NCBI GenBank assembly: GCA_951406725.2
Contig: OX597822.1
Location: 72,540,001 to 72,604,000 of the forward strand
Source of the DNA: Octopus vulgaris
Lineage: Eukaryota
DNA: 64,000 bases
Direction of reading: 5' to 3'
Below, one piece after another: positions 1 through 63,860 of this stretch. The notes beneath the pieces were generated by a model, which was given only the letters and a program-made list of their open reading frames with translations, was not told the origin of the DNA and made no database searches. The position numbers and the translations under genes are program-made. Each line of letters starts with the position of its first letter. The first letter of the stretch is position 1.

Positions 1-468
1 GCAGTTCTTCGCGCCGGAACTAAGACATTTGAAATTTTATACCTAATGTAATCGGTAAAACTAAACACGTGTCTGTTTTGGCACAGAAAGCTGGGCTTAG
101 TTTTTCAGATTGCATTTACACTGAACAATTGTACTGATGAGGCCACGGACATTTGAATTACGTATGTAATTCTTTTGTTAAAGGCCGAAACCGAGGTATG
201 CAATTAATTCTGTTTTTTATATAAATTTTCATCTGTCCTGCCCGCCAAATTTGGTTCTGGTGTTCGCTGAATTTTTCCTCTAGAGAACTTTCTTTGTAGT
301 TTGATCGTTGATGATCTATTTCTAGTATACGGCCGACTACCTAGCAGTCTTGCCCTACCAATATACACATATATTAGAATTTTCTCTGATTTCTCAGATT
401 TTTTGTATGCTAGACTACTGGTTTTAAATTGATATTAAAATTAATATTAATTTATCTCCCTCATTATT

Positions 469-1367: not shown

Positions 1368-2021
1368 ATGTAGATACACTCACAACATGCTTCTTTTAGT
1401 TTCCATATACAAAATCCACACAGAAGGTGTTGGTCTGCCCGGGGCAATTGTAGGAGGCATATACACAAAGTGCCATGCTGTGAATTTGAATCCGAAAAGA
1501 CATGCTCGAGAAGCAACCTGCTTACCACACAGCCACGCCTCCGCCTATATTTCGATGCATTGATTTCGAAATCTATTGTTGCACATATATAGTTTAGGTA
1601 AGTAATTGTTATCAGTCCATTGACCCTGTGGACATTGCCTGGGTAATTCTGATCTATGTTTCTTTAATTACCATTAAACTTATCTCGGAAATTGTCAACT
1701 AAACTTTCTTAGTTTTTAACAGAACTTTAGGATGCGAATTGAATTAGAAAATAATCAATCCAAAATTCTAAGATTAACAGAAATGTGACACGAATACACT
1801 CGGCAATATACACTTTGGTTGATTACGAATTTCACGGGAGCGATAGAAATCAGACACATTTTGTCAAAATCTACGTCGGAATACTAATCTCTTGGGAAAA
1901 AAAAAACATGCTAACGTTAGCACACATTCTAAAAGCCAAAAGCCATCACTAATAATATTAGTGTCAACTTTTATCTCTCTCACTCACTCTCTCTCTGTAT
2001 TGTATATATATATATATATAT

Positions 2022-3058
2022 ATATGTTAATAAAATATATGCATATATATAAACATATATGTACGTACCTACCTCTACATGTACATATACACGCATATAT
2101 GTGTACAGGACACCAAAAAGACGTCGAACACATAGAGAGACGAAAAACATAGACACAAACCAAGGAACAAGACAGGCAAAAAAAAAAAAGGAGATACAGG
2201 ACAATAAGCACAACGAAAAATCCCCTTCTTCAGTCGCTAAAGTTTCATCTACTAAACGTTTCGAAGGATAAAAGCGAGACGTATACTTCGAAGAAAAATT
2301 CCTTCCTGAGAAAAGCAAATCAATTAAAATTCTGAGATCTTTTCGCAGAGGGGTAAAAAAAGCAAGACGGTAACGACAGTACAAACATATAAACAGTAAA
2401 AAATATATATATAAACAGTTGAAAAATAAATATATAACAGTGAGAGACAGGACAAGGAGAACAAGATAAGAAGGGCTGTTAACGCCAGACGAAAAAAGTA
2501 TTGCAAACGCTGGATTATAGTGGACGACGAGAGAGGAAGATGTCGACCAGTAGCCTTAGAAGGCGGGCGAGAAAGGACAGGATAGCAGTTACGACGGAAG
2601 TAAGGTCGCAGATGGACGACGGGAATGGGGGAGGAGGAGCAAGAGGAAGAGAGAGAAGAAGGGGAATGGTGCGAGGAGACCATGAAGAACAGTGAGGGGG
2701 AGAGAGAGAGGAAGAGACAAGTTAAGTGAGGGAAAAAAAGACGAAAAAGGGAATGGGAGAGAAAGAAAGAAAGATGCAGAGTCGCGTGAGAGTTAATATC
2801 AAGGCGAACTTGATAAACAGAACAATCTTACTTAATAGGGTGCGTGCGTTTAGTCGTATAATATGTTAATAAAATATATGCATATATATAAACATATATG
2901 TACGTACCTACCTCTACATGTACATATACACGCATATATGTGTACAGGACACCAAAAAGACGTCGAACACATAGAGAGACGAAAAACATAGACACAAACC
3001 AAGGAACAAGACAGGCAAAAAAAAGGAGATACAGGACAATAAGCACAACGAAAAATCC

Positions 3059-3062
<4 letters not shown>
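2022..3062 (-). mobile_element. Non-coding ~0.84-kb retrozyme-like / non-autonomous PLE-like element with direct terminal repeats (copy 1)
   Basis: ~205-bp direct repeats at 2022-2227 and 2861-3062 (period 839). Flanked by (TA)n on both sides. Homologous to ~50540-51395 and 62912-63860. Confidence 0.8.
2212..2304 (-). ncRNA. Candidate non-circularly permuted hammerhead ribozyme (copy 1)
   Basis: Minus strand reads ACGUC^UCGCU-uuuau-CCUUC-GAAACGU-linker-AGCGA-CUGAAGA-A-GGGG. Stem I UCGCU/AGCGA, stem III ACGU/ACGU. Confidence 0.65.
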
Positions 3063-3131
<69 letters not shown>

Positions 3132-3161
3132 TATGCGTGCGTGCGTGTGTGTGTGTGTCTT

Positions 3162-11923: not shown

Positions 11924-13592
11924 CAGTAGTTTTATTTTTATAACGTGCTTTCACTTCCCTACCGAGCGCAGCTTTGTGTGCCTTGGGTATGTGCTGTGAT
12001 TTGTTGTGATGCCCTGATGGTTACTGTATTGAAAGTGTTCTGCGTAGGATGTGTGCAGTGCCTAGTAGTGCAATTTTCTGTATGTTATATGTGTTTGTAA
12101 GTCCTGGTGTTTTTGTTATGTATTTGTCTGAATAATTTTCTATCATGCCTAATTCACCTACTATGAGAGGAATTGTTTCTGTTTTTAGATTTCACATTCT
12201 AGTTACCTCTATTTCCAGGTCTTTGTATTTTGAAAGTTTCTCCATTTCTTTTAGAGACGTGGTCATCTGCTGGTATTGATACATCAATTAGAAAGCATTT
12301 TTTTCTTCATGATCTCTGAAAACTATATCTGGTCTGTTGGCCTTAATTTCTCTATCTGTGTGTATTGGCATATTGGTTGCTTTCTCGCGTTCTGTGACCT
12401 TCTCTGGTGTGTGCCTATACCATCTTTTTTCTGTTGTTATTCCATAATGTTGGCATAGCTTCCAGTGTATGTAGTTCCCAACTCTGTCGTGTCTGTGAAT
12501 ATATTCCTTCTTAGCCAGGACTGGGCAGCTAGAGATAATATGATTTATTGTTTCTTGTCCATCTCCACATATTCTGCAGTTACTTGTAATATTTCGTTTC
12601 ATTACATGTTTTTGGTAATTTCTGGTGGGGAGGCTTTGGTCTTGTGCTGCAATTAAAAATCCCTCTGTCTCTGCTTTGAGTCCTGAGCTTCTCAACCACT
12701 GCTGGGATTTTTCTTTGTCTATTTCTTTTGCATTTAGTTTAGTCCAGTACTTGCCATGAAGAGGCTTTTCTCGCCATCGTTTTATCATGGTTCGTTGCTG
12801 TTCTAGTTTTAGTTTTGATTTCATTTGCTTTATAGCTTTTGTTATGTCTTCTTCTTCTTCTTCTTCTTCTTCTTCTTCTTCTTCTTCTTCTTCTTCTTCT
12901 TCTTCTTCTTCTTCTTCTTCTTCTTCTTCTTCTTCTTCTTCTTCATATTTGTTAGGTGGAATGATTTCTTGTTTGTATTTGTCAGCTTCCTTAAATACTG
13001 AGAACAATTTTTTGTTTTGCTCGTGTTTTGCCGCTATTTGTATCAGTTTTCCTTGCTTCTGAAGTAGGTATTTTTGCAGTCCTATGGTGGTTATTTTATA
13101 GTAGTTTTCCAGCTTTATAAGGCCTCTACCACCTTCTATACGTTGTATATATAGCCTTTCTATGTCAGATTTTGGGTGATGCATCCTAGAACCTGTCATT
13201 ATTTTTCTTGTTTTCCTATCTATTTTGGTTAGTTCATTTAGCGTGCGTCCAGTTAAGGATATTATACCTGTAACTTATAACTGGGACGGCTAAAGTGTTA
13301 ATACCTATTATCTTGTTTTTAGCATTGAGCTCTGTTTTTTAGTATTGATCTAACTCGTCTATAGTATTCTTTCTTTATTTTCTTTCATTTGTGTGTGTTG
13401 TGTCTTATCTAGTTCATGGATTTGTAAATATTTGTAAGTTTGCTTTGGTCTAATTCTCTTATTTCATTGGTTTTATCTAGTGTGATGTTGCTACTCTTAA
13501 CTAGTTTTCCTCTTTTCATGGTTACTTTGGCGCATTTTTCTAATCCAAATTTCATATCTATTTCTTCGGTGAATCCATGAAACGTCTTTAAT

Positions 13593-25063: not shown

Positions 25064-25188
25064 ATGTATATGTATATATATATATATATAACGGGAAGCT
25101 TTATGAAAATAAACAAAAGACGAAGGCAGGTGGAAAACAAACGAACAATTGTATTAGTATGGCGCTCAGGAAATATAAATAAAACAAG

Positions 25189-25226
25189 TCTTTAACGTTT
25201 CGAGCCTACGCTCTTCAACAGAAAGA
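25189..25226 (-). ncRNA. Minimal hammerhead with variant core CUGUUGA
   Basis: UCUUU-CUGUUGA-A-GAGC-GUAG-GCUC-GAA-ACGU-U-AAAGA; 5-bp stem I. Confidence 0.6.
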
Positions 25227-26041
25227 TACACAGAGAGAGAAAAACACAGAAAGAAGGAGAGAAAAAAATGCGTGCAGTAGCTAACGAATCAACATGGCGA
25301 TCTGATTTCGGCCAGAGGTCAAAGATCAAACATGAGACGCGAGAGCGAAATAAGGGGAGATAATAGGGTTGATAAAAGGGTTGAGGGACCAGCTAAAAGT
25401 GCGTGGGAGGGGTCTGGATGTGTGTATGTATAGGGTTGGTGTATGTATTAGTATGTATAAGGGTGTGTGTGTGTGTGTATGAGAGAGTATTAGTGCGTAA
25501 GATTGGTCTGGACGTGCGTATGTATGGGGTTGGTGTATGTATTAGTATGTATTAGTATGTATTAGTACGTATTGGTATGTATAGGTGTGTGTGTGTGTGT
25601 GTGAGAGAGTATAAGTGCGTATGCGGGGTCTGGACGTGTGTATGTATAGGGTTGGTGTAAGTATTAGTATGTACTGGTATGTATTAGTACGTATTAGTAT
25701 GTATTAGTTGGTGTGTGTATTAGTATGGCACATCATATGTGATGTGATGTGTAAAGTCATGTGGTGTAGTGAGGAGAAGAGGGGGAGGGGAGAAGAGGGG
25801 GAGAGAAGGCGAGGGGAAGAAGAGGGGGAGGAGAAGGGGGAAGAGGAGAGGATGGGGGAGAAGGAAGGGGAGGAGGGGGATGAAGGAGGAAAGAGGGAGA
25901 GAGGGAGTGAGGGAGCAGAGGGAAGGGGAAGAGGGAGGGAGAAAGAGGGAAGAAGGGAAGGGGAGTAGGGGTGAAAGGATGAAGGACTGTAGAAGTAGGG
26001 GTCGGGGGGAGAAAGGATAGGTGAGGAGGGGGGAGAGGGGG

Positions 26042-26459
26042 TTAGATGAGGAGGGGGAGAGAGTTGAGACCAAATGGCGTATAAGAGCGAAGAGAGAAGA
26101 TTAATTCTTGTTCACGGCGCAAACGGGAATCCGGATGGCCTCTGTGTAAGGACAAACCGAACACAGATAGGTGTTGCAAGGAGTGACCGGTGGAGCGGAA
26201 ATGGCGTGAGACCGGTGTGTCGTTCGCAAGGTGGATGTCACGAAGGTGTTCCGCGAACCGAGCGGCGTCCCGTTTGTCCGATGTACAAGGAATTGCAGAG
26301 AGAGCAAGAGATGCAATAGATAATATTGCTGGAGGTGCAGGTGAAGGAGTGGATGATGGGATAGGGTCGATGGTGGGTGCTAGTGAGGCGGGTGGTGTTG
26401 GAGAGGTAAGGGCAAGTGCGGCAACGTGGGCGGGAGCAGGGGAACGAGCCGGGTTGGGA
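26042..26459 (-). pseudogene. PLE Cys-rich linker plus GIY-YIG endonuclease remnant (one frameshift)
   Basis: Manual translation: PGSFPCSRPRCRTCPY...FTCTSSNIIYCISCSLCNSLYIGQTGRR / RFAEHLRDI...EQELIFSLRSYTPFGLN...stop. Confidence 0.9.
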
Positions 26460-26533
26460 TATATATATATATATATAACATTATTGGTGAATTGAAGAAA
26501 TGGAGCTGAACGCAGATTGAACAGAAATCGTTT

Positions 26534-26627
26534 TATTTCATTCTACACGTGTTTCGAAAGGCACAAATTACCAAAATCCGATTGAATAATGGGACCATAT
26601 TGTGTCTTTCTCTTCAGGAAGAAAATA
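26534..26627 (-). ncRNA. Mirror copy of the type I hammerhead in the left palindrome arm
   Basis: Reverse complement of 26888-26981. Confidence 0.85.
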
Positions 26628-26887
26628 GGAAATCCGTTGGAAAAACAAAAACAGAACAGAGGCGGAGCAAAAACAAATCGAACTATGCTCCTAAGAGCCC
26701 ATGGCGAAACTGTTTATCAGTGTATGTTGAGAACCGGTGGCTGAAGAATTAACGGGTCAGCCATTAATTCTTCAGCCACCGGTTCTCAACATACACTGAT
26801 AAACAGTTTCGCCATGGGCTCTTAGGAGCATAGTTCGATTTGTTTTGCTCCGCCTCTGTTCTGTTTTTGTTTTTCCAACGGATTTCC

Positions 26888-26981
26888 TATTTTCTTCCTG
26901 AAGAGAAAGACACAATATGGTCCCATTATTCAATCGGATTTTGGTAATTTGTGCCTTTCGAAACACGTGTAGAATGAAATA
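26888..26981 (+). ncRNA. Type I hammerhead ribozyme with palindromic loop III
   Basis: Stem I UAUUUUCUUC/GAAUGAAAUA; CUGAAGA (26898-26904); stem II GAAAGACACAA/UUGUGCCUUUC; GAAAC-ACGU-GUA with cleavage predicted after 26971. Confidence 0.88.
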
Positions 26982-28864
26982 AAACGATTTCTGTTCAATC
27001 TGCGTTCAGCTCCATTTCTTCAATTCACCAATAATGTTTTAATTTCAATTATCCGCACCAACGCACGGTTGCAACACCATATGGTTGTACCTCCAACCGT
27101 GCTGTTTACTGCTGTGATGTTTGCTACTAAGGTATCGGTTAAACTTTTGATTAATCTACTACAAGATTATTCATCTTTCTATTTCACATAATATTATATA
27201 TATATATATATATATACATATATATATGTATTTATGTGTGTGTGTGTGTGTCTGTGTATGTTCTCCACCCCCCTGCTATCGCGTGACAATCGATGCTGGT
27301 GTGTTTATGTCCCCCGTAACTTAGCAGTCCGGCGAAAGGATCCGATACAAAGTACTAGGTTTACAAGAAATAAGTCCTGTGTTCGATTTATTTGACTAAA
27401 ACCCTTTAAGGCATGACCGCACTCAAAGTGCATGACCGCACTCAAAAAACTGAAACATGTAAGAGAATAAAAGAATGAATATATATATAATTTCGACTAG
27501 AATAACGTAAAAAGTATATATTTAAATATTGCACAGGAAATATGCATTCTGTCGCATTCATATTTCGCAGTGTTTATAACATTTTCTCTCTAAACATGAA
27601 AAGGGTCACACACAGACAGACACAAACCCTCTATTTCTCTCTCTCATAAACACGGATCATACATATGAAAAATAATAACATGCGTATGGGTATAGGAAAG
27701 TATGGTGCTAATGTTTAAGTTAATGTGCATGTTAGTGTATAAGGGAAATGTTATGTATGTAAAAGTTGATCTAACAATATGTATTTATATTTTTCGATGG
27801 CGTAAGCTCATTTAACAACTACAAAGTTATTAAGATCGTAAACCACTAAGATTAGACTAGCATTTTTATGCCAGGATGCCAAGTATAATTATTTCCTGTT
27901 GCGTGAGGGAAAATTTATTGCTTTACCATATTATCAATGGGAACGTCTCCATAAATTTATACTGTCTACAGTTATTGATGTGTTCTTCAATTGTTTCAGT
28001 TTTTCTTTGGTATTTAGATTTTTGCCTCATTAAATGATTAGTTTCCATGCCTACCCTCACCTATAATCATAAATGTTGAGTAATGCCTAAAAGAGCACTT
28101 TCGTGAATACAGGCACTCTAAATGGGTTACTCCAAAGGATCCTTGAAGTAACATTACTAGACAGGATCCGTACTCGGAGATTAGCGAGTTTCTTAGGAGA
28201 AACCGCTATTTCTCCGCAATGAGAGGGAACAGCTCTGGTATTACAGAAACATAATTAGAATGATACTTGAAAGATCGCAAGACAGATTATTGAATCTGAA
28301 CCTTTCGACCAAGAACAACGTAGTTAGATAATATCCATTGTCTCTCTTGATCAGGTTTTCGAATACATTAGGAAATTGTAACGACAGTTGCTTCTGATAG
28401 AACCCTATAGATAAGATGTCTGAGGAGACTACGTCTTTGACCCTCCTAGGAATAGAAGGTAGTGACAATGGATGGATAGATAGATGCTTAGTTTTACACC
28501 AAAGTGTACATTTTACCTAAAATTAGATCGATACTTAACAGAGACATATAACGAGACGGCACACCAAATCCGACCCATGAAATTTTGTATCTCGCTTATG
28601 GAAACTTGGTGAGTTAAATATATTCCTACATTTGAAAAATCCTTATGTTCTACATGTGAGTTGAGGTGCTACAGTTAGCTGCGATTTCATTCTTTAATCG
28701 AACATCTGAAAACCTGAAGAAAGGACATTTCTGAATAAATACATAGTTTGCGTTACTACTATACAGCCTTAAATGCATCAATGGCTAAGTGGGACTATCT
28801 TTTGTATCTTTTCGTGCGAGAAAAAAACCCAATAGAAATTAGTACTCCTGCGAGTATTATATTG

Positions 28865-48844: not shown

Positions 48845-50539
48845 ATGTATATGTATAATTGTAAGTTTGTATGTATGTATGCATGTATGTATGCATGCAT
48901 GCATGTATGTATACAGTGAGTAAGGAAGAAATTTAAATGCACATCGTGACTTTTAGATAATTTATTAACATTCACTTAACCGGTTTCATATTTTCTTGAC
49001 TTCAAATCTGAGTTGCATAGAGGACACTATGCCATATAATCACATCACTCCTGGTTGTCCTATTTGACAGCATTTGATGCCATTACCGTAATACTTTTGA
49101 TGTTACACCTGGCTAATTTCATTTGATCTATCTATCCAAGTACTTCTTAAATAATTTCATGTTAGATGTGAGCAATCAAGATTGTTTCGTTACCTGATAA
49201 ACCCATCAAAAGTTGACGCCACGTTAGTTACTCAATTCTTTATTTTGCCGAAAGAAAGCTTTTGGTGAGATTGTTGATGATGTCATTGCTCCATTTGAAA
49301 TGTCACAGTGCTATTCTTCAATATTCTACTAGAATAATTATATAAGGGCACGTCTGTCTTGTAAAAGAAGCTCTTCACCTCTTCATAAAAAAATTGTCAT
49401 TTATTTCATTAAATATGATGTTGTAACTAAGATTACATAAACAAACAAAACTAGATTTGTTTCACTATTCATAGGCAAAAAGAACAATTTTCTGAGAGAA
49501 GATAGATTTTTCTGGAAGGGAATATTTAGATGGATGTAGGAAATAAACCAGCAAAATTTGTTTCGATAAAACCACAGATTAAATAGGGACAAATACAGAA
49601 AAAAATGTTTATTAAAAAATATAAACCACGATTGAATAAACTATAACAGTATATCAAGTAAATATGTAGCGCCTCCCTGTCTATAATTGGAGATCAGGGA
49701 TCATTATTTTCCAGTTATTTTCTTTAAAAACAACAACCGGACCTTCAAAATTATGTAATGACGTCATCAATTAGCTGACCAATAGATTTCATTCGAGAAA
49801 CCACCAACAACACTAATTGACGTAAATAAAAAATTAACCAGAATGGGATTCTACAAATGCTTTTTGTAGCATCACGAGGGAACTAATTAACCAGGATTGC
49901 TCATCACTAATATCAAACTAGTCAAAGCTACCAAAACAGAAAAAAAAAAGAATAAAATCAAATCAAAAGCAATCAAGCGTAATACCAAAAGTATTTCTAT
50001 ATTCAGCTTTAAATCAACTGCTCATACAGTCAAATATGAACTACCAGAATAACAGTCTGTGTTAAACTTGCAATAAAACTTTAGAGTCGAATATATTGCG
50101 TTATAGAAAACTTCATCTCACACTTCTTTCGAGAATCATGAAATGACGTAGACGGTTACATAAAGGCACGTCTAGTGCATTTTCAATTGTTTTCTTTTAT
50201 ACTTCGACTCGTTCTGAAAAAATAATTCGCCTGTATAATATGTATATCGATACATACGTACATATACATATGTATTCATACGCTCACAAAGAAACACTTA
50301 TACATATGTATGCTTACATTTGTAGTGTAAGGTTTCAAGTCGCTATGTTTGATAAAACTGTTTAATGTGTATGTATCTATATGTATATATGCATACATGT
50401 ACATAACATATATACATTAATACATACACAAAAATATATCTTATATATATGCTTATATATATATATATGCACACAGGTATATGTGTGTATGTGCGTGTGT
50501 GTGTCGTGTGTGCGCGCATGTGTGTCTGCATTTTTGTGT

Positions 50540-51395
50540 ATGTAGAGAGGTCGGTAGGTAGGTACGTTTACTTTTCCGTACAAGAAATACATACAAATCA
50601 CTTTTAAATATGACGGAACGCACGCATCCATTTCTAAATAAGATTGTTCTTGATATTAATAATGATGCGCACTCTTGACCTTTCTGTCCCCTCCCTTTCT
50701 CAGCCTTCATTCTTTCTGGTGTCCTTTTTTCTACCTTACTCTATCTCCCTCTCTCTCTCATTCTTAATGGTTTCCTCACAACCATTCCCTTTTTTTTCTC
50801 TCCCTTTCTCTTGCTCCTCCTCCTCCCTCCCGTCGTTGATCCGCGACGAGAGCTTTGCTACTGCCTTTCTGGCCTGGCGGCCTTGATGTGTAGACGGCAT
50901 TTTCTGTTGCTACTTCGCCGTTCTAAAAACTAGCGTTCGTAACACTTTATCTCGTTCGGTTTAACAGCCCTTCTTGTCTTGTTATTCTCCTTGTCCTGTC
51001 TTTTACTGTTTATATTTTGTACTGTCGTTACTGTCCTGTTTTTGTTACCATTTTTACCCCTCCGCAAAAAGATCTCACATTTTATTTAATTTGCTTTTCG
51101 CGGGAAGGAAAGTTTCTATCGAAGATGCGTATCGCTTTCACCTTCGGAACGCAGAGTAGATGAAACCATGGCGACTGAAGAAGGGGGATTTTCCTTGTGC
51201 TATTTGTCCTGTACTCTTTTTTACGTTGTTTAAGAAAAGTGTCCAGTTCCATGGTTTTGTGTTTATGTTTTCGTTTCTCATTGTGTTCGACGTTTTTTTG
51301 GTATCCTGTACCCATATATGCATGTATATATACATGTAGAGGTAGGTACGTACATATATGTATGTATATATGCATATGTTTTATTTATTAACTTA
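50540..51395 (+). mobile_element. ~0.85-kb retrozyme-like element (copy 2)
   Basis: Colinear with 63050-63860 and with the reverse complement of 2022-2900; ends at TTTATTAA before TA-rich DNA. Confidence 0.8.
51105..51196 (+). ncRNA. Candidate permuted hammerhead (copy 2), GAAA mutated to GGAA
   Basis: UGCGUA^UCGCU-uuca-CCUUC-GGAACGCA-linker-GGCGA-CUGAAGA-A-GGGGG. Confidence 0.55.
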
Positions 51396-53101: not shown

Positions 53102-53235
53102 GGGGCAGGTGTGGCTGTGTGGTAACAAACTACGTTCCAAACACATGGTCCTGCGTTCAGTCCCACTGTGTGGTGACTTGGCATGTGTCTTCTGCTGTAG
53201 CTTCAGACCAACAAAAGCCTTCTCAGTGGATTTTG
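53102..53235 (+). mobile_element. SINE family A 5' half
   Basis: GCAGGTGTGGCTGTGTGGTAA head and GTTCAGTCCC B-box-like motif. Confidence 0.7.
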
Positions 53236-53249
53236 TACATATATACAGG

Positions 53250-54360
53250 CATTCATACATTCAGGCAGGGTCAAATAGCCTCCCCACTGCTGTCATTCGT
53301 GAAACAACCTACGACACTCAAATGCCTTCATGCAACATCAACAAAAGCTGCACTATGGCTCACAAGGGAGCTTTGGAAGCATTATATAGAGCCCTGAAAG
53401 ACATCCGAGACTGTCAGGCTCCAATGGGAGATGTAACGCTTCTGTTGTCAGGTGATTTCAGGCAAACTCTTCCTGTCATTCCGAAGACACTAGAGCTGAT
53501 GAAGTTCAAGCACGCCTAAAGTCCTCTACCCTGTGGCATCATGTTACAATCTTTAGTCTCACCACTAACATGAGAGCCCAGCTATACGGCGACAAAATGT
53601 CCACAAAGTTTGCACAGGACATTTTGACACTTGATGAATGCAAGATGCCTCTCGATGCTGCAGGACAAATGGAAGTGTGGTCATTTTCCTCTGTTGTTAA
53701 TTCTGTAGATGACCTCAAAAACAAAGTGTTTCCCAACTTCACAGAAAACTACCAAAATCACAATTGGCTGTGTGAAAGAGCAATATTAGCTCCAAAAAAC
53801 GTCGCTGTTAGCAAAATTAATCAACAGCTAATGCATTCTCTTCCCGGCACTATACACACAAGTCTGTTGATACAATTCCTGACATAAATGAAGTTGTGAA
53901 CGATCCTCCTGAATTTCTCAATTCACTGGAGCCTCCTCGACTACCTCCACACATATTAGCACTTAAAGTTGGTACTCCTGTAATGCTACTCCGCAATCTG
54001 GAACCACCAAGACTTTGCAATGGAACACGAATGGTGATAAAGAAAATGATGTCACACGTTATTGAGGCGATCATTATTTCTGGATGTGGAAAAAGTGATG
54101 ACGTCTTTATTCCAAGATTTCTTCTAACTCCATCAGGAGCAGAAATTCCATTTACATTCAGAAGACTGCAATACCCACTTCGTGTCAGCTTTGCCATGTC
54201 CATTAACAAATCTCAGGGTCAAACCCTCTCTGTAACTGGTCTTCTCTTGGAAAAGCCCTGCTTCTCGCATAGGCAACTGTATGTTGGCTGCTCAAGAGTA
54301 GGAACCAAAAGAATGCTCCACAAGGAAAAACAAGGAACATTGTTTACAACGAGGTGTTAT
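53250..54360 (+). pseudogene. Helitron RepHel PIF1-like helicase C-terminal remnant, frameshifted
   Basis: GDFRQTLPVIP, ERAILAPKN, PPHILALKVGTPVMLLRNL..PRLCNGTR, QYPLRVSFAMSINKSQGQTL, QLYVGCSRV. Confidence 0.93.
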
Positions 54361-54572
54361 CATCTCAACAGCCAGGAGGTATATACATGATCCCCTTGTT
54401 TGAACAAACTTCATGTACTTTCATGTATTTATATTAATATACATATATTTGTGTGTGTGTGTGTGTGTGCGTGTGTGTGTATATCCATATATATATATAT
54501 ATATATATATATAACACAAAAGTATAATTCTTCTATTGAATGTAACCGGGCAACGCCGGGTATCTCTGCTAG

Positions 54573-62911: not shown

Positions 62912-63860
62912 CTTGTTTGTATGTCCTGTACTCTACTTTTTCGTTGTTTAAAAAAATGTCCATTTTCTCGGTTTTGTGTTTATGTTTTCGTTTCTCATTG
63001 TGTTCGTCGTTTTTTTGGTGTCCTGTACCCATATATGCATGTATATATACATGTAGAGGTAGGTACGTACATATATGTATGTATAAATGCATGTTTTATT
63101 TATTTATTTATATATGACTGAACGCACGCATCCATTTCTAAGTAAGATTGTTCTTAATATTAATACTGATGCGCACTCTTAACCTTTCTCCCTCCCTCCC
63201 TTTCTCAGCCTTCATTCTTTTTCTTCTACCTTACTGTCTCTCCCTCTCTCTCTCTCATTCTTCATTCTTTTCTCTACCACCATCCCCGTTTTTTCTCTCC
63301 CTTTATCTTACTCCTCCTCCCCCCTCCCGTCGCGGTCACGTGATGAGATGCCTATTTCTGTCTTTTCTTCTCCAGCTTCCTCCAAGTAGGGACGGTAAAA
63401 TCTGTTGCTCTGCCGATCCCAAAGAATAGCGTTCGTAAAAAAAATTCTTATCTCGTTTGGCTTAATAGCCCTCCTTGTTTGTGTTACTGTTATTCTCCGT
63501 TGTCCTGTTTATATTTTGTACTGTCGTTACTGTCCTGTTTTTGTTACCAGTTCCCCCCCCCCGCAGAAAAATCTCAAATTTTATTTAATTTGATTTCCGC
63601 GGGAAGGAAAATTTCATTGAAGTCATGTATCGCCTGACCTTCGAAACGTGGAGTAGATGAAATTAAGGCGACTGAAGAAGGGGAATTTTCCTTGTTTTTA
63701 TGTCCTGTACTCTATTTTTTCGTTGTTTAAAAAATGTCCATTTCCTCGGTTTTGTGTTTATGTTTTCGTTTCTCATTGTGTTCGACGTTTTTTTGGTGTC
63801 CTGTACCCATATATGCATGCATGTATATATACATGTAGAGGTAGGTATGTACATATATTA
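62912..63860 (+). mobile_element. ~0.78-kb retrozyme-like element with direct terminal repeats (copy 3)
   Basis: Direct repeats starting at 62912 and 63691 (period 779); (TA)n on both flanks. Confidence 0.8.
63604..63693 (+). ncRNA. Candidate non-circularly permuted hammerhead ribozyme (copy 3, core intact)
   Basis: CAUGUA^UCGCCU-ga-CCUUC-GAAACGUG-linker-AGGCGA-CUGAAGA-A-GGGG; predicted cleavage after 63629. Confidence 0.7.

Follow-up and report, generated by a model that had tools for sequence, protein, structure and literature searches.

A non-coding, retrozyme-like element of Octopus vulgaris found in (TA)n repeats and carrying a predicted, non-circularly permuted hammerhead

The genome of Octopus vulgaris contains a young family of non-coding, (TA)n-flanked repeats whose units carry the parts of a putative hammerhead ribozyme in permuted order. 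The element is probably a non-autonomous, retrozyme-like parasite of Penelope-like elements (PLEs), rolled from an RNA circle by way of the permuted hammerhead; both the cleavage and the circle are predictions made from sequence. The analysis covered a 64,000-nt stretch of contig OX597822.1 (positions 72,540,001 to 72,604,000 of GCA_951406725.2; hereafter the window), which holds three copies (Table 1), and genome-wide searches over 2.8 Gb in 227 contigs.

Copies 1 and 3 had been described from the window as a unit plus a direct repeat, and this is confirmed. The repeat at 2865-3062 in copy 1 is 98% identical to the 202 nt at 2026-2227, with a period of 839 nt; the repeat in copy 3 is 94% identical, with a period of 779. 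The (TA)n flanks on both sides of copy 1 and the CT-rich centre also stand, and the start given at 2022 took in 4 nt of TA flank, the element proper beginning at 2026. Unit coordinates 1-839 run along the minus strand, from window position 2864 to 2026. The 5' end of copy 1 is AAGGGGATTTT, the first base of which is A9 of CUGAAGA. Likewise upheld is the lack of a credible open reading frame: the longest ATG frame has 119 aa and its length is unstable, ranging from 30 to 146 aa across 67 young loci (119 aa in 14 and 55 aa in 33), and a Pfam search with its first 73 aa matched no family. Protein-coding capacity is absent, as in non-LTR retrozymes. With a single complete ribozyme, copy 1 could not itself free a unit circle through two cuts. 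Identity to copy 1 is 73-77% for copies 2 and 3; an internal repeat was sought in copy 2 at E<1e-3 and none was found, and the 5' end of copy 3 (CTTG) lies about 12 nt beyond CUGAAGA.

Table 1. Copies of the element in the window and predicted parts of the copy 1 ribozyme
Feature	Position	Strand	Remark
Copy 1, 1,037 nt (1.24 units)	2026..3062	-	
Full unit, 839 nt	2026..2864	-	3' end ..TTATTAAC at 2026 is the family's fixed priming end
Second lap, 5'-truncated, 198 nt, starting at the ribozyme A9/P strand	2865..3062	-	
(TA)n target, 3' flank	2003..2025	none	
(TA)n target, 5' flank	3063..3134	none	
Central CT-rich tract, 82% C+T on the sense strand	2520..2780	-	
Y strand CCCCU, predicted to pair with P and close the ribozyme	2349..2353	-	Little covariation within the family
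Hairpin H, lying between Y and U and with a single mismatch in copy 1	2306..2348	-	Three lower-stem pairs changed on both sides
U strand GAAGGA, proposed stem II 5' strand, supplying G10.1	2300..2305	-	Invariant in the family, covaries across families
X strand UUUC, partner of L in the helix that bridges stems I and II	2293..2296	-	
Block S: stem III 3' strand ACGU, triplet GUC, stem I 3' strand UCGCU	2273..2282	-	
Predicted cut	between 2278 and 2277	-	Placed by analogy
Block G: stem II 3' strand UCCUUC, GAAA, stem III 5' strand	2256..2268	-	
L strand GAAA, partner of X	2243..2246	-	
Block C: AGCGA (stem I 5' strand), then CUGAAGA	2227..2238	-	
P strand AGGGG, predicted to pair with Y	2222..2226	-	Stem II 5' strand in the rival model
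Copy 2, older subfamily, about one unit, start approximate	50530..51392	+	GAAA damaged (GGAA)
Copy 3, older subfamily, 779-nt unit and 165-169-nt repeat	62912..63858	+	

At least 1,673 exact matches to a tight pattern of the ribozyme-bearing unit occur genome-wide, and these are not chance matches since the reversed control gave none. With the stem II strand left free the pattern matched 1,809 times (control 0), and the exact junction of the 3' end with TA is found 375 times (control 0). The family comprises several subfamilies, the youngest copies being 96-100% identical to copy 1 and some of them mutually identical over about 660 compared sites; insertions are single and dispersed over many contigs. 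Among distinct near-identical loci, all 29 with a visible end (a thirtieth was cut at its edge) end at ..TTATTAAC followed by AT repeats, and 24 of the 28 loci chosen by the ribozyme motif alone reach the same point. Of the four exceptions, two extend about 55-60 nt beyond it, one is interrupted and one continues into a partial unit. The AT-rich 3' point at which all three window copies were said to end is thus fixed in the family, although copy 3 itself stops about 25 nt short of it. Older-subfamily copies or inverted pieces at four loci (L053, L055, L034 and L035) end about 55-60 nt beyond the usual point, at ..GATTGTTCT(TA)n, which suggests a second priming site like PLE tail extension.

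Inverted 5' pieces, a hallmark of PLEs according to the accessible text of PMC8557442, occur in 1 of 100 young loci and in 4 of 28 loci of mixed age; two of these four look like a single locus that was duplicated. On contig C2 two young insertions, at 83365000 and 83365676 (L139/L247 and L140), lie tail to tail 650 nt apart, and one of them, an array of 6.2 units, carries an inverted piece at the 5' end. LTR termini, which the preliminary description had named as evidence against its reading, were looked for: the element's termini have no TG..CA and no LTR ends, the 5' ends being variable and the flanks TA. The PLE-type, partial-tandem behaviour proposed earlier is thereby borne out, with 5' truncation, partial tandems, inverted 5' pieces and a microsatellite target all present together with the fixed 3' end. 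The element behaves as a non-autonomous PLE derivative, for which the 3' UTRs of Naiad and Neptune-type elements yielded no partner sharing 3' sequence.

The hammerhead core (CUGAnGA, GAAA and UH) is present in the order cut site (GUC), GAAA, CUGAAGA, that is, S-G-C as in the type-SGC hammerhead, and it is intact in 112 of 118 young units. Judged from these blocks, the order of the putative ribozyme is a non-circular permutation. Covariation was assessed in 25 sequences, namely the three window copies and 22 of 28 distinct motif-chosen variants, the other six being truncated upstream or redundant. The proposed structure, composed of Y:P, H, U with the 3' strand of stem II (U:II3'), X:L, stem III and stem I, pairs 93% of cells, and 9 of its 41 pairs are changed on both sides, a value reached in none of 500 shuffles and to be set against at most 4 in slid controls, although relatedness among the sequences biases tests of this kind upwards and parts of stems I and II were prescribed by the search pattern. 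Covariation is shown for stem I (one pair), stem III (two pairs), H and the X:L helix bridging stems I and II, which is 82% paired with two pairs changed on both sides. RNAalifold, unaided, recovered Y:P, H and stem I and not the crossing helices, and RNAfold, for which pseudoknots are impossible, favours other hairpins for copy 1. No hammerhead was among the 150 of 188 Rfam matches listed for the window; those listed are of miRNA type, lie on microsatellites and were dismissed as spurious.

Copy lengths and 5' ends were mapped in the first 100, in genome order, of the 375 exact 3' junctions, a sample that avoids length bias. These young copies range from 27 to 5,214 nt (median 945; longest 6.21 units), with a few calls below 60 nt uncertain because the unit's end is AT-rich. 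Forty-one copies extend up to one unit, 51 from one to two and 8 further; 59 exceed one unit and 26, with two complete motifs, could release a unit circle by cutting twice; there is one hammerhead per unit, head to tail. TA lies on the 5' side of 77. The "1.2-mer" of the preliminary description is accordingly not a fixed form and is one draw from a continuum, and the end map expected from it was found in part: 3' ends are fixed, but 5' ends are scattered over unit positions 1-825. Ten of the 100 fall in the 23 nt at the ribozyme 3' edge (638-660), threefold the 3.1 expected (p=0.0016, uncorrected for nine bins; p=0.034 against the neighbouring 661-760). There is one end at 607-637 and there are four at 594-606; the stretch around the predicted cut site (583-593) has none. 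Ends at the ribozyme 3' edge, correctly noted for copies 1 and 3, are therefore not general, and a stall of the RT at the ribozyme is a modest hotspot rather than the rule, since 90 of 100 copies end elsewhere. In a sister family that shares the ribozyme layout the pile-up is stronger, 5 of 15 5' ends lying within 6 nt of one point inside the motif, so the pause is real. The share of copies that terminate rises from 41 of 100 in lap 1 to 51 of 59 in lap 2 (p=9e-9, Fisher test). In the studied family four of 100 ends cluster at CCUUC/GAAA, which is not significant (p=0.09), and TA microhomology (29/85 against a background of 0.28) gave no explanation of the 5' ends.

The units inside one array differ by 0.28% (93 of 32,984 sites in 83 pairs from 51 loci), a figure in which artefacts at the ends are included and one array is counted two times, and the difference between loci is 1.45% (2,145 pairs). 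Comparisons within arrays at 30 polymorphic sites number 980, of which 960 agree (194 of these on a minor allele); the 20 disagreements stand against 277 expected from independent draws. Thirteen of the 20 are at a poly-T tract; the seven real ones, in five loci, show some template mixing or conversion. The units of an array share one haplotype, which fits derivation from one template. The simplest reading is that this template was a circular RNA copied by rolling reverse transcription, because priming lies 252 nt inside the cleavage-defined monomer with free passage through the cut site, and because arrays reach six units though all family copies are 5'-truncated. The ribozyme-processed circle of the preliminary description thus survives as the best account, shorn of the stall as a general rule.

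The alternative that comes through best has no circle: a PLE RT would copy linear read-through multimers, or jump repeatedly to the 3' end of a linear RNA, and the ribozyme would be weak or would trim precursors. Partial tandems are indeed standard for PLEs for which the accessible part of PMC8557442 demonstrates no circles, a few arrays do mix haplotypes, and homogeneous parent arrays would give homogeneous daughters as well. However, on a cleaved linear template the RT would run off at the cut site, and none of the 100 5' ends lies there; the priming site is inside the cleavage-defined monomer. Many haplotypes exist, each with homogeneous arrays of up to 6.2 units, and since every copy is 5'-truncated array length must be regenerated; moreover, termination doubles in lap 2. 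We therefore hold the absence of a circle to be doubtful.

With a circular template, the cycle would begin with transcription of copies that have two complete ribozymes (at least 1.39 units). The permuted hammerhead would cut after GUC in each unit and the monomer of about 835 nt would be ligated into a circle. Insertion into (TA)n, visible at the DNA level, would be the work of a PLE endonuclease/RT that, to judge from the DNA, begins every time at one AT-rich site, which lies 252 nt 3' of the cut site, with priming expected at ..UUAUUAAC. The RT would then pass the ligated junction and go round the circle, most cDNAs stopping in lap 1 or, far more often, in lap 2, with few reaching three to six laps and the 3' edge of the ribozyme acting as a mild pause. 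The drop in lap 2 may arise because an RT lacking RNase H must displace its own cDNA strand. The sequence of the element is also present in assembled contigs from four runs labelled as four organisms, in which strand, ends and circles are not readable.

Stem II appears to be split, being completed by an upstream strand and not by the bases that follow CUGAnGA. The chain of the S-G-C hammerhead would, on the covariation evidence, be opened between A9 and G10.1: strand P after CUGAnGA would pair with the upstream Y, hairpin H would follow Y, and strand U would complete stem II. An upstream strand that starts with G pairs in this way in 26 of 28 sequences of the studied family, and in 16 of 20 (at the same spacing) and 8 of 11 of the other two families with this layout, the misses being mostly truncated copies; the probability of finding a partner of this kind by chance, calculated post hoc, is 0.013, 0.015 and 0.11 for the three families. 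Since U:II3' is invariant within the studied family and the search pattern fixed CCTTC, support for it comes from the other families. The inner GAAG beside the cut site was also considered as stem II partner and dropped in favour of the invariant upstream GAAGG. The rival is an ordinary type-SGC hammerhead in which AGGGG after CUGAAGA makes stem II with A.C at 10.1-11.1, and Y, H and U are alternative or regulatory, a model that leaves the carrier mechanism unchanged. According to the accessible table S2 of PMC8557442, PLE hammerheads commonly have a mismatch at 10.1-11.1, the duplex energy is -4.5 kcal/mol for the contiguous stem and -6.5 for U:II3', and Naiad-1_Dst apparently has a contiguous stem II (by eye). 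A very young haplotype (22 of 118 units) has C11.1 changed to U, giving A-U in the contiguous stem, so that the pair is better in that model and weaker in the split one. Against this, the contiguous stem has A.C at 10.1-11.1 in 25 of 25 sequences, includes two G.U pairs, is only 74.6% paired and shows no change on both sides; none of the 28, 20 and 11 sequences from the three families forms its 10.1-11.1 pair, and the stem is impossible in the other two families of the octopus genome and in four published Naiads of other species (by eye). The contiguous form, though formable in the studied element with these A.C and G.U pairs, is unlikely, and the upstream U strand fits better.

Helitron derivatives have one fixed and one variable end, head-to-tail arrays, a TC start and a CTRR end, and frameshifted helicase-like ORF fragments that we take to resemble the Helitron PIF1 domain do lie in the window (53103-54390, plus strand), but a DNA-level rolling-circle element of that kind, or a satellite made by unequal exchange, with the motif incidental, is highly improbable given the RNA-level covariation and intact catalytic core on one strand, the lack of TC starts and CTRR ends at the element's termini, inverted 5' pieces and TA flanks that match a PLE of the octopus genome, and single insertions dispersed over many contigs.

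The split S-G-C layout, with unrelated sequence, is found in two further families of the octopus genome. One is Naiad itself: a short 3' motif taken from the Naiad_Ovul consensus has 286 exact matches genome-wide, and at locus L082 a Naiad RT is linked to the motif 1,459 nt downstream. The other, the sister family, is again non-coding and TA-flanked, with at least 494 copies and units of about 490-710 nt (L196, L218-L232). It has a fixed 3' end about 80 nt beyond the ribozyme layout, partial tandems and a CT-rich centre; Y is present and hairpin H absent, and X:L is 8 bp long with compensatory changes. Besides its five clustered 5' ends, three more lie 21-29 nt upstream.

We also judged by eye 21 published Naiad 3' ends, with record identity taken from file order. 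The full Y-H-U-X-S-G-L-C-P layout is seen in Ovul, Obim, Bfor (a ctenophore), Movir-2 (a cubozoan) and Dst-4 (an ostracod), and with one mismatch in Esco, which makes 6 of 21 Naiads, from four phyla. Dst-4, for example, has GGGG as Y and CCCC as P, an 8-bp H, GACGCC/GGCGUC at U and a 10-bp stem III. Dst-1 (Naiad-1_Dst) instead has an apparently contiguous SGC motif, with stem II directly after CUGAnGA, and Smim and four nematode Naiads have the order C before G. In three nematode 3' ends (Hpol, Nbra-2 and Nbra-3) the strand after CUGAnGA pairs upstream and GAAAC comes later, possibly another pseudoknotted form of the hammerhead. No hammerhead layout was evident within about 600 nt in the remaining ends. 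According to the accessible portion of PMC8557442, Naiads encode EN-RT, prefer (TA)n, lack canonical hammerheads, some being flagged HHR_core or half_core only, and persist as remnants in cephalopods. Naiad PLEs with this layout are the likely source of the element's ribozyme. Evenly balanced, in our judgement, is the wider proposition that Naiads of ctenophores, cnidarians, crustaceans and cephalopods carry an active split, non-circularly permuted hammerhead outside the six permutations considered, that non-coding circles derived from them, in their thousands, carry it too, and that these have persisted beyond their Naiad source, a different PLE clade now rolling them into (TA)n.

The preliminary description had pointed to an autonomous PLE sharing the element's 3' end. 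No such partner emerged: the unit has no alignable match in Naiad or Neptune-type 3' UTRs, similarity being confined to AT-rich and low-complexity matches, and a driver can for this reason be assigned by target and age alone. The enzyme now at work is somewhat more probably than otherwise a near-intact PLE with C-terminal EN and a CX4CXXC linker, assigned to the Neptune/Nematis type by that motif as given in the accessible text of PMC8557442. It has open frames of up to 767 aa, 99.1-100% identity among seven loci and 3' ends that enter TA-rich sequence in 10 of 10 cases (9 by strict match), and agrees with the element in age and target, not in sequence. An unassembled Naiad is a possible but weaker candidate; the search for an intact one returned only broken copies in 19 RT-motif loci, in 134 of 752 candidates and in 54 of 2,819 at a stricter first look. 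Naiad RT copies are about 70-90% identical and every scored copy is broken. A 695-aa frame on contig C11 was rejected as an intact Naiad at the locus examined, and 18 further regions around RT matches, mostly of low identity, contained neither the motif nor a long Naiad ORF. Less likely still is a further PLE, Hydra for example; Hydra-1_Obim is also (TA)n-targeting in the accessible part of PMC8557442.

Several other elements of the window were noted. The region 25091-27041 has a 5'-truncated young Neptune/Nematis-type copy on the minus strand, ending at 25091, with the GIY-YIG end at 26042-26293 and a type I hammerhead of changed core at about 25190-25225; the copy adjoins an inverted repeat (26474-27041) with type I hammerhead-like motifs at 26617 and 26898. 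A TA-anchored family with a minimal type I hammerhead (5096 and 44942 on the minus strand; L076 and L220 elsewhere) ends at ..GGATTAAC(TA)n, and its last six bases, ATTAAC, are those of the studied element. At 134-200 (plus strand) there is a type I hammerhead-like CUGAUGA..GAAAC with a long stem II loop, and at 12288-13274 (minus strand) a retrotransposon ORF fragment, presumably the C-terminal zinc-finger region of a non-LTR retrotransposon, broken by a (TCT)33 tract that translates as poly-E.

Animal non-LTR retrozymes, as presented in the accessible parts of PMC7229834 and bioRxiv 10.64898/2026.07.22.740005, are likewise non-coding with tandem hammerhead units and no LTR, PBS or PPT, and PLE-mobilised circRNA intermediates have been proposed for them there. 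They have type I hammerheads in units of 150-450 nt, with a consensus of up to 972 nt (Li et al., in the text available). In contrast, the octopus element has an 839-nt unit, a putative motif that is non-circularly permuted (S-G-C rather than type I), strict (TA)n targeting, a mapped fixed 3' end and lap-dependent truncation. It works like a non-LTR retrozyme but falls outside that class by hammerhead type, and the fixed-end LTRs, type III hammerhead and 4-bp TSD of plant LTR retrozymes are not found in it. The closest ribozyme is type-SGC HRIMA-1 (Eckert et al. 2023), which in the available text of PMC10085705 has the same S-G-C order and full catalytic core, likewise with a short linker from stem I to stem II and an extra helix bridging these stems. 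Eckert et al. assumed stem II directly after CUGAnGA, whereas the octopus motif is apparently split, with P:Y and H between A9 and G10.1, and sits in an animal retroelement. Type-SGC was validated in vitro and, in that text, was unreported from known organisms' genomes, with the exception of one bacterial GCS candidate. Naiads, as covered by the accessible part of PMC8557442, share the (TA)n preference, partial tandems and 5' truncation of the octopus element, and Naiad_Ovul/Obim have the same ribozyme layout near the 3' end, verified in the octopus genome. Unlike Naiads, the element is non-coding, young and without alignable shared sequence, the cephalopod Naiads being described as dead. Chlamys elements such as MRC1 are, in the same source, also non-autonomous PLE derivatives with head-to-tail multicopy insertions and pLTRs, but they have 3' sequence in common with an autonomous partner and no hammerhead reported in the part available, and for the octopus element no partner sequence was found.

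A prior description of the element was sought in the accessible literature, and none was found there. The term "type-SGC" occurs there in one paper only, and the available texts of PMC13725137, PMC10162972, PMC7936874 and PMC6155905 give no such hammerhead variant.

Bacterial hammerheads with an extra helix somewhere in the core exist. If our reading is true, a non-circularly permuted hammerhead so far metatranscriptomic or metagenomic would be present in animal chromosomes at thousands of copies, and the assumption that CUGAnGA and stem II are contiguous would be broken. The view that Naiads lack hammerheads, and the conclusion derived from it that hammerheads are dispensable for PLEs, would then need revision. 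The end map makes the long-open origin of PLE partial tandems and retrozyme arrays directly testable, and a defined RNA and a near-intact candidate enzyme are available from the same genome.
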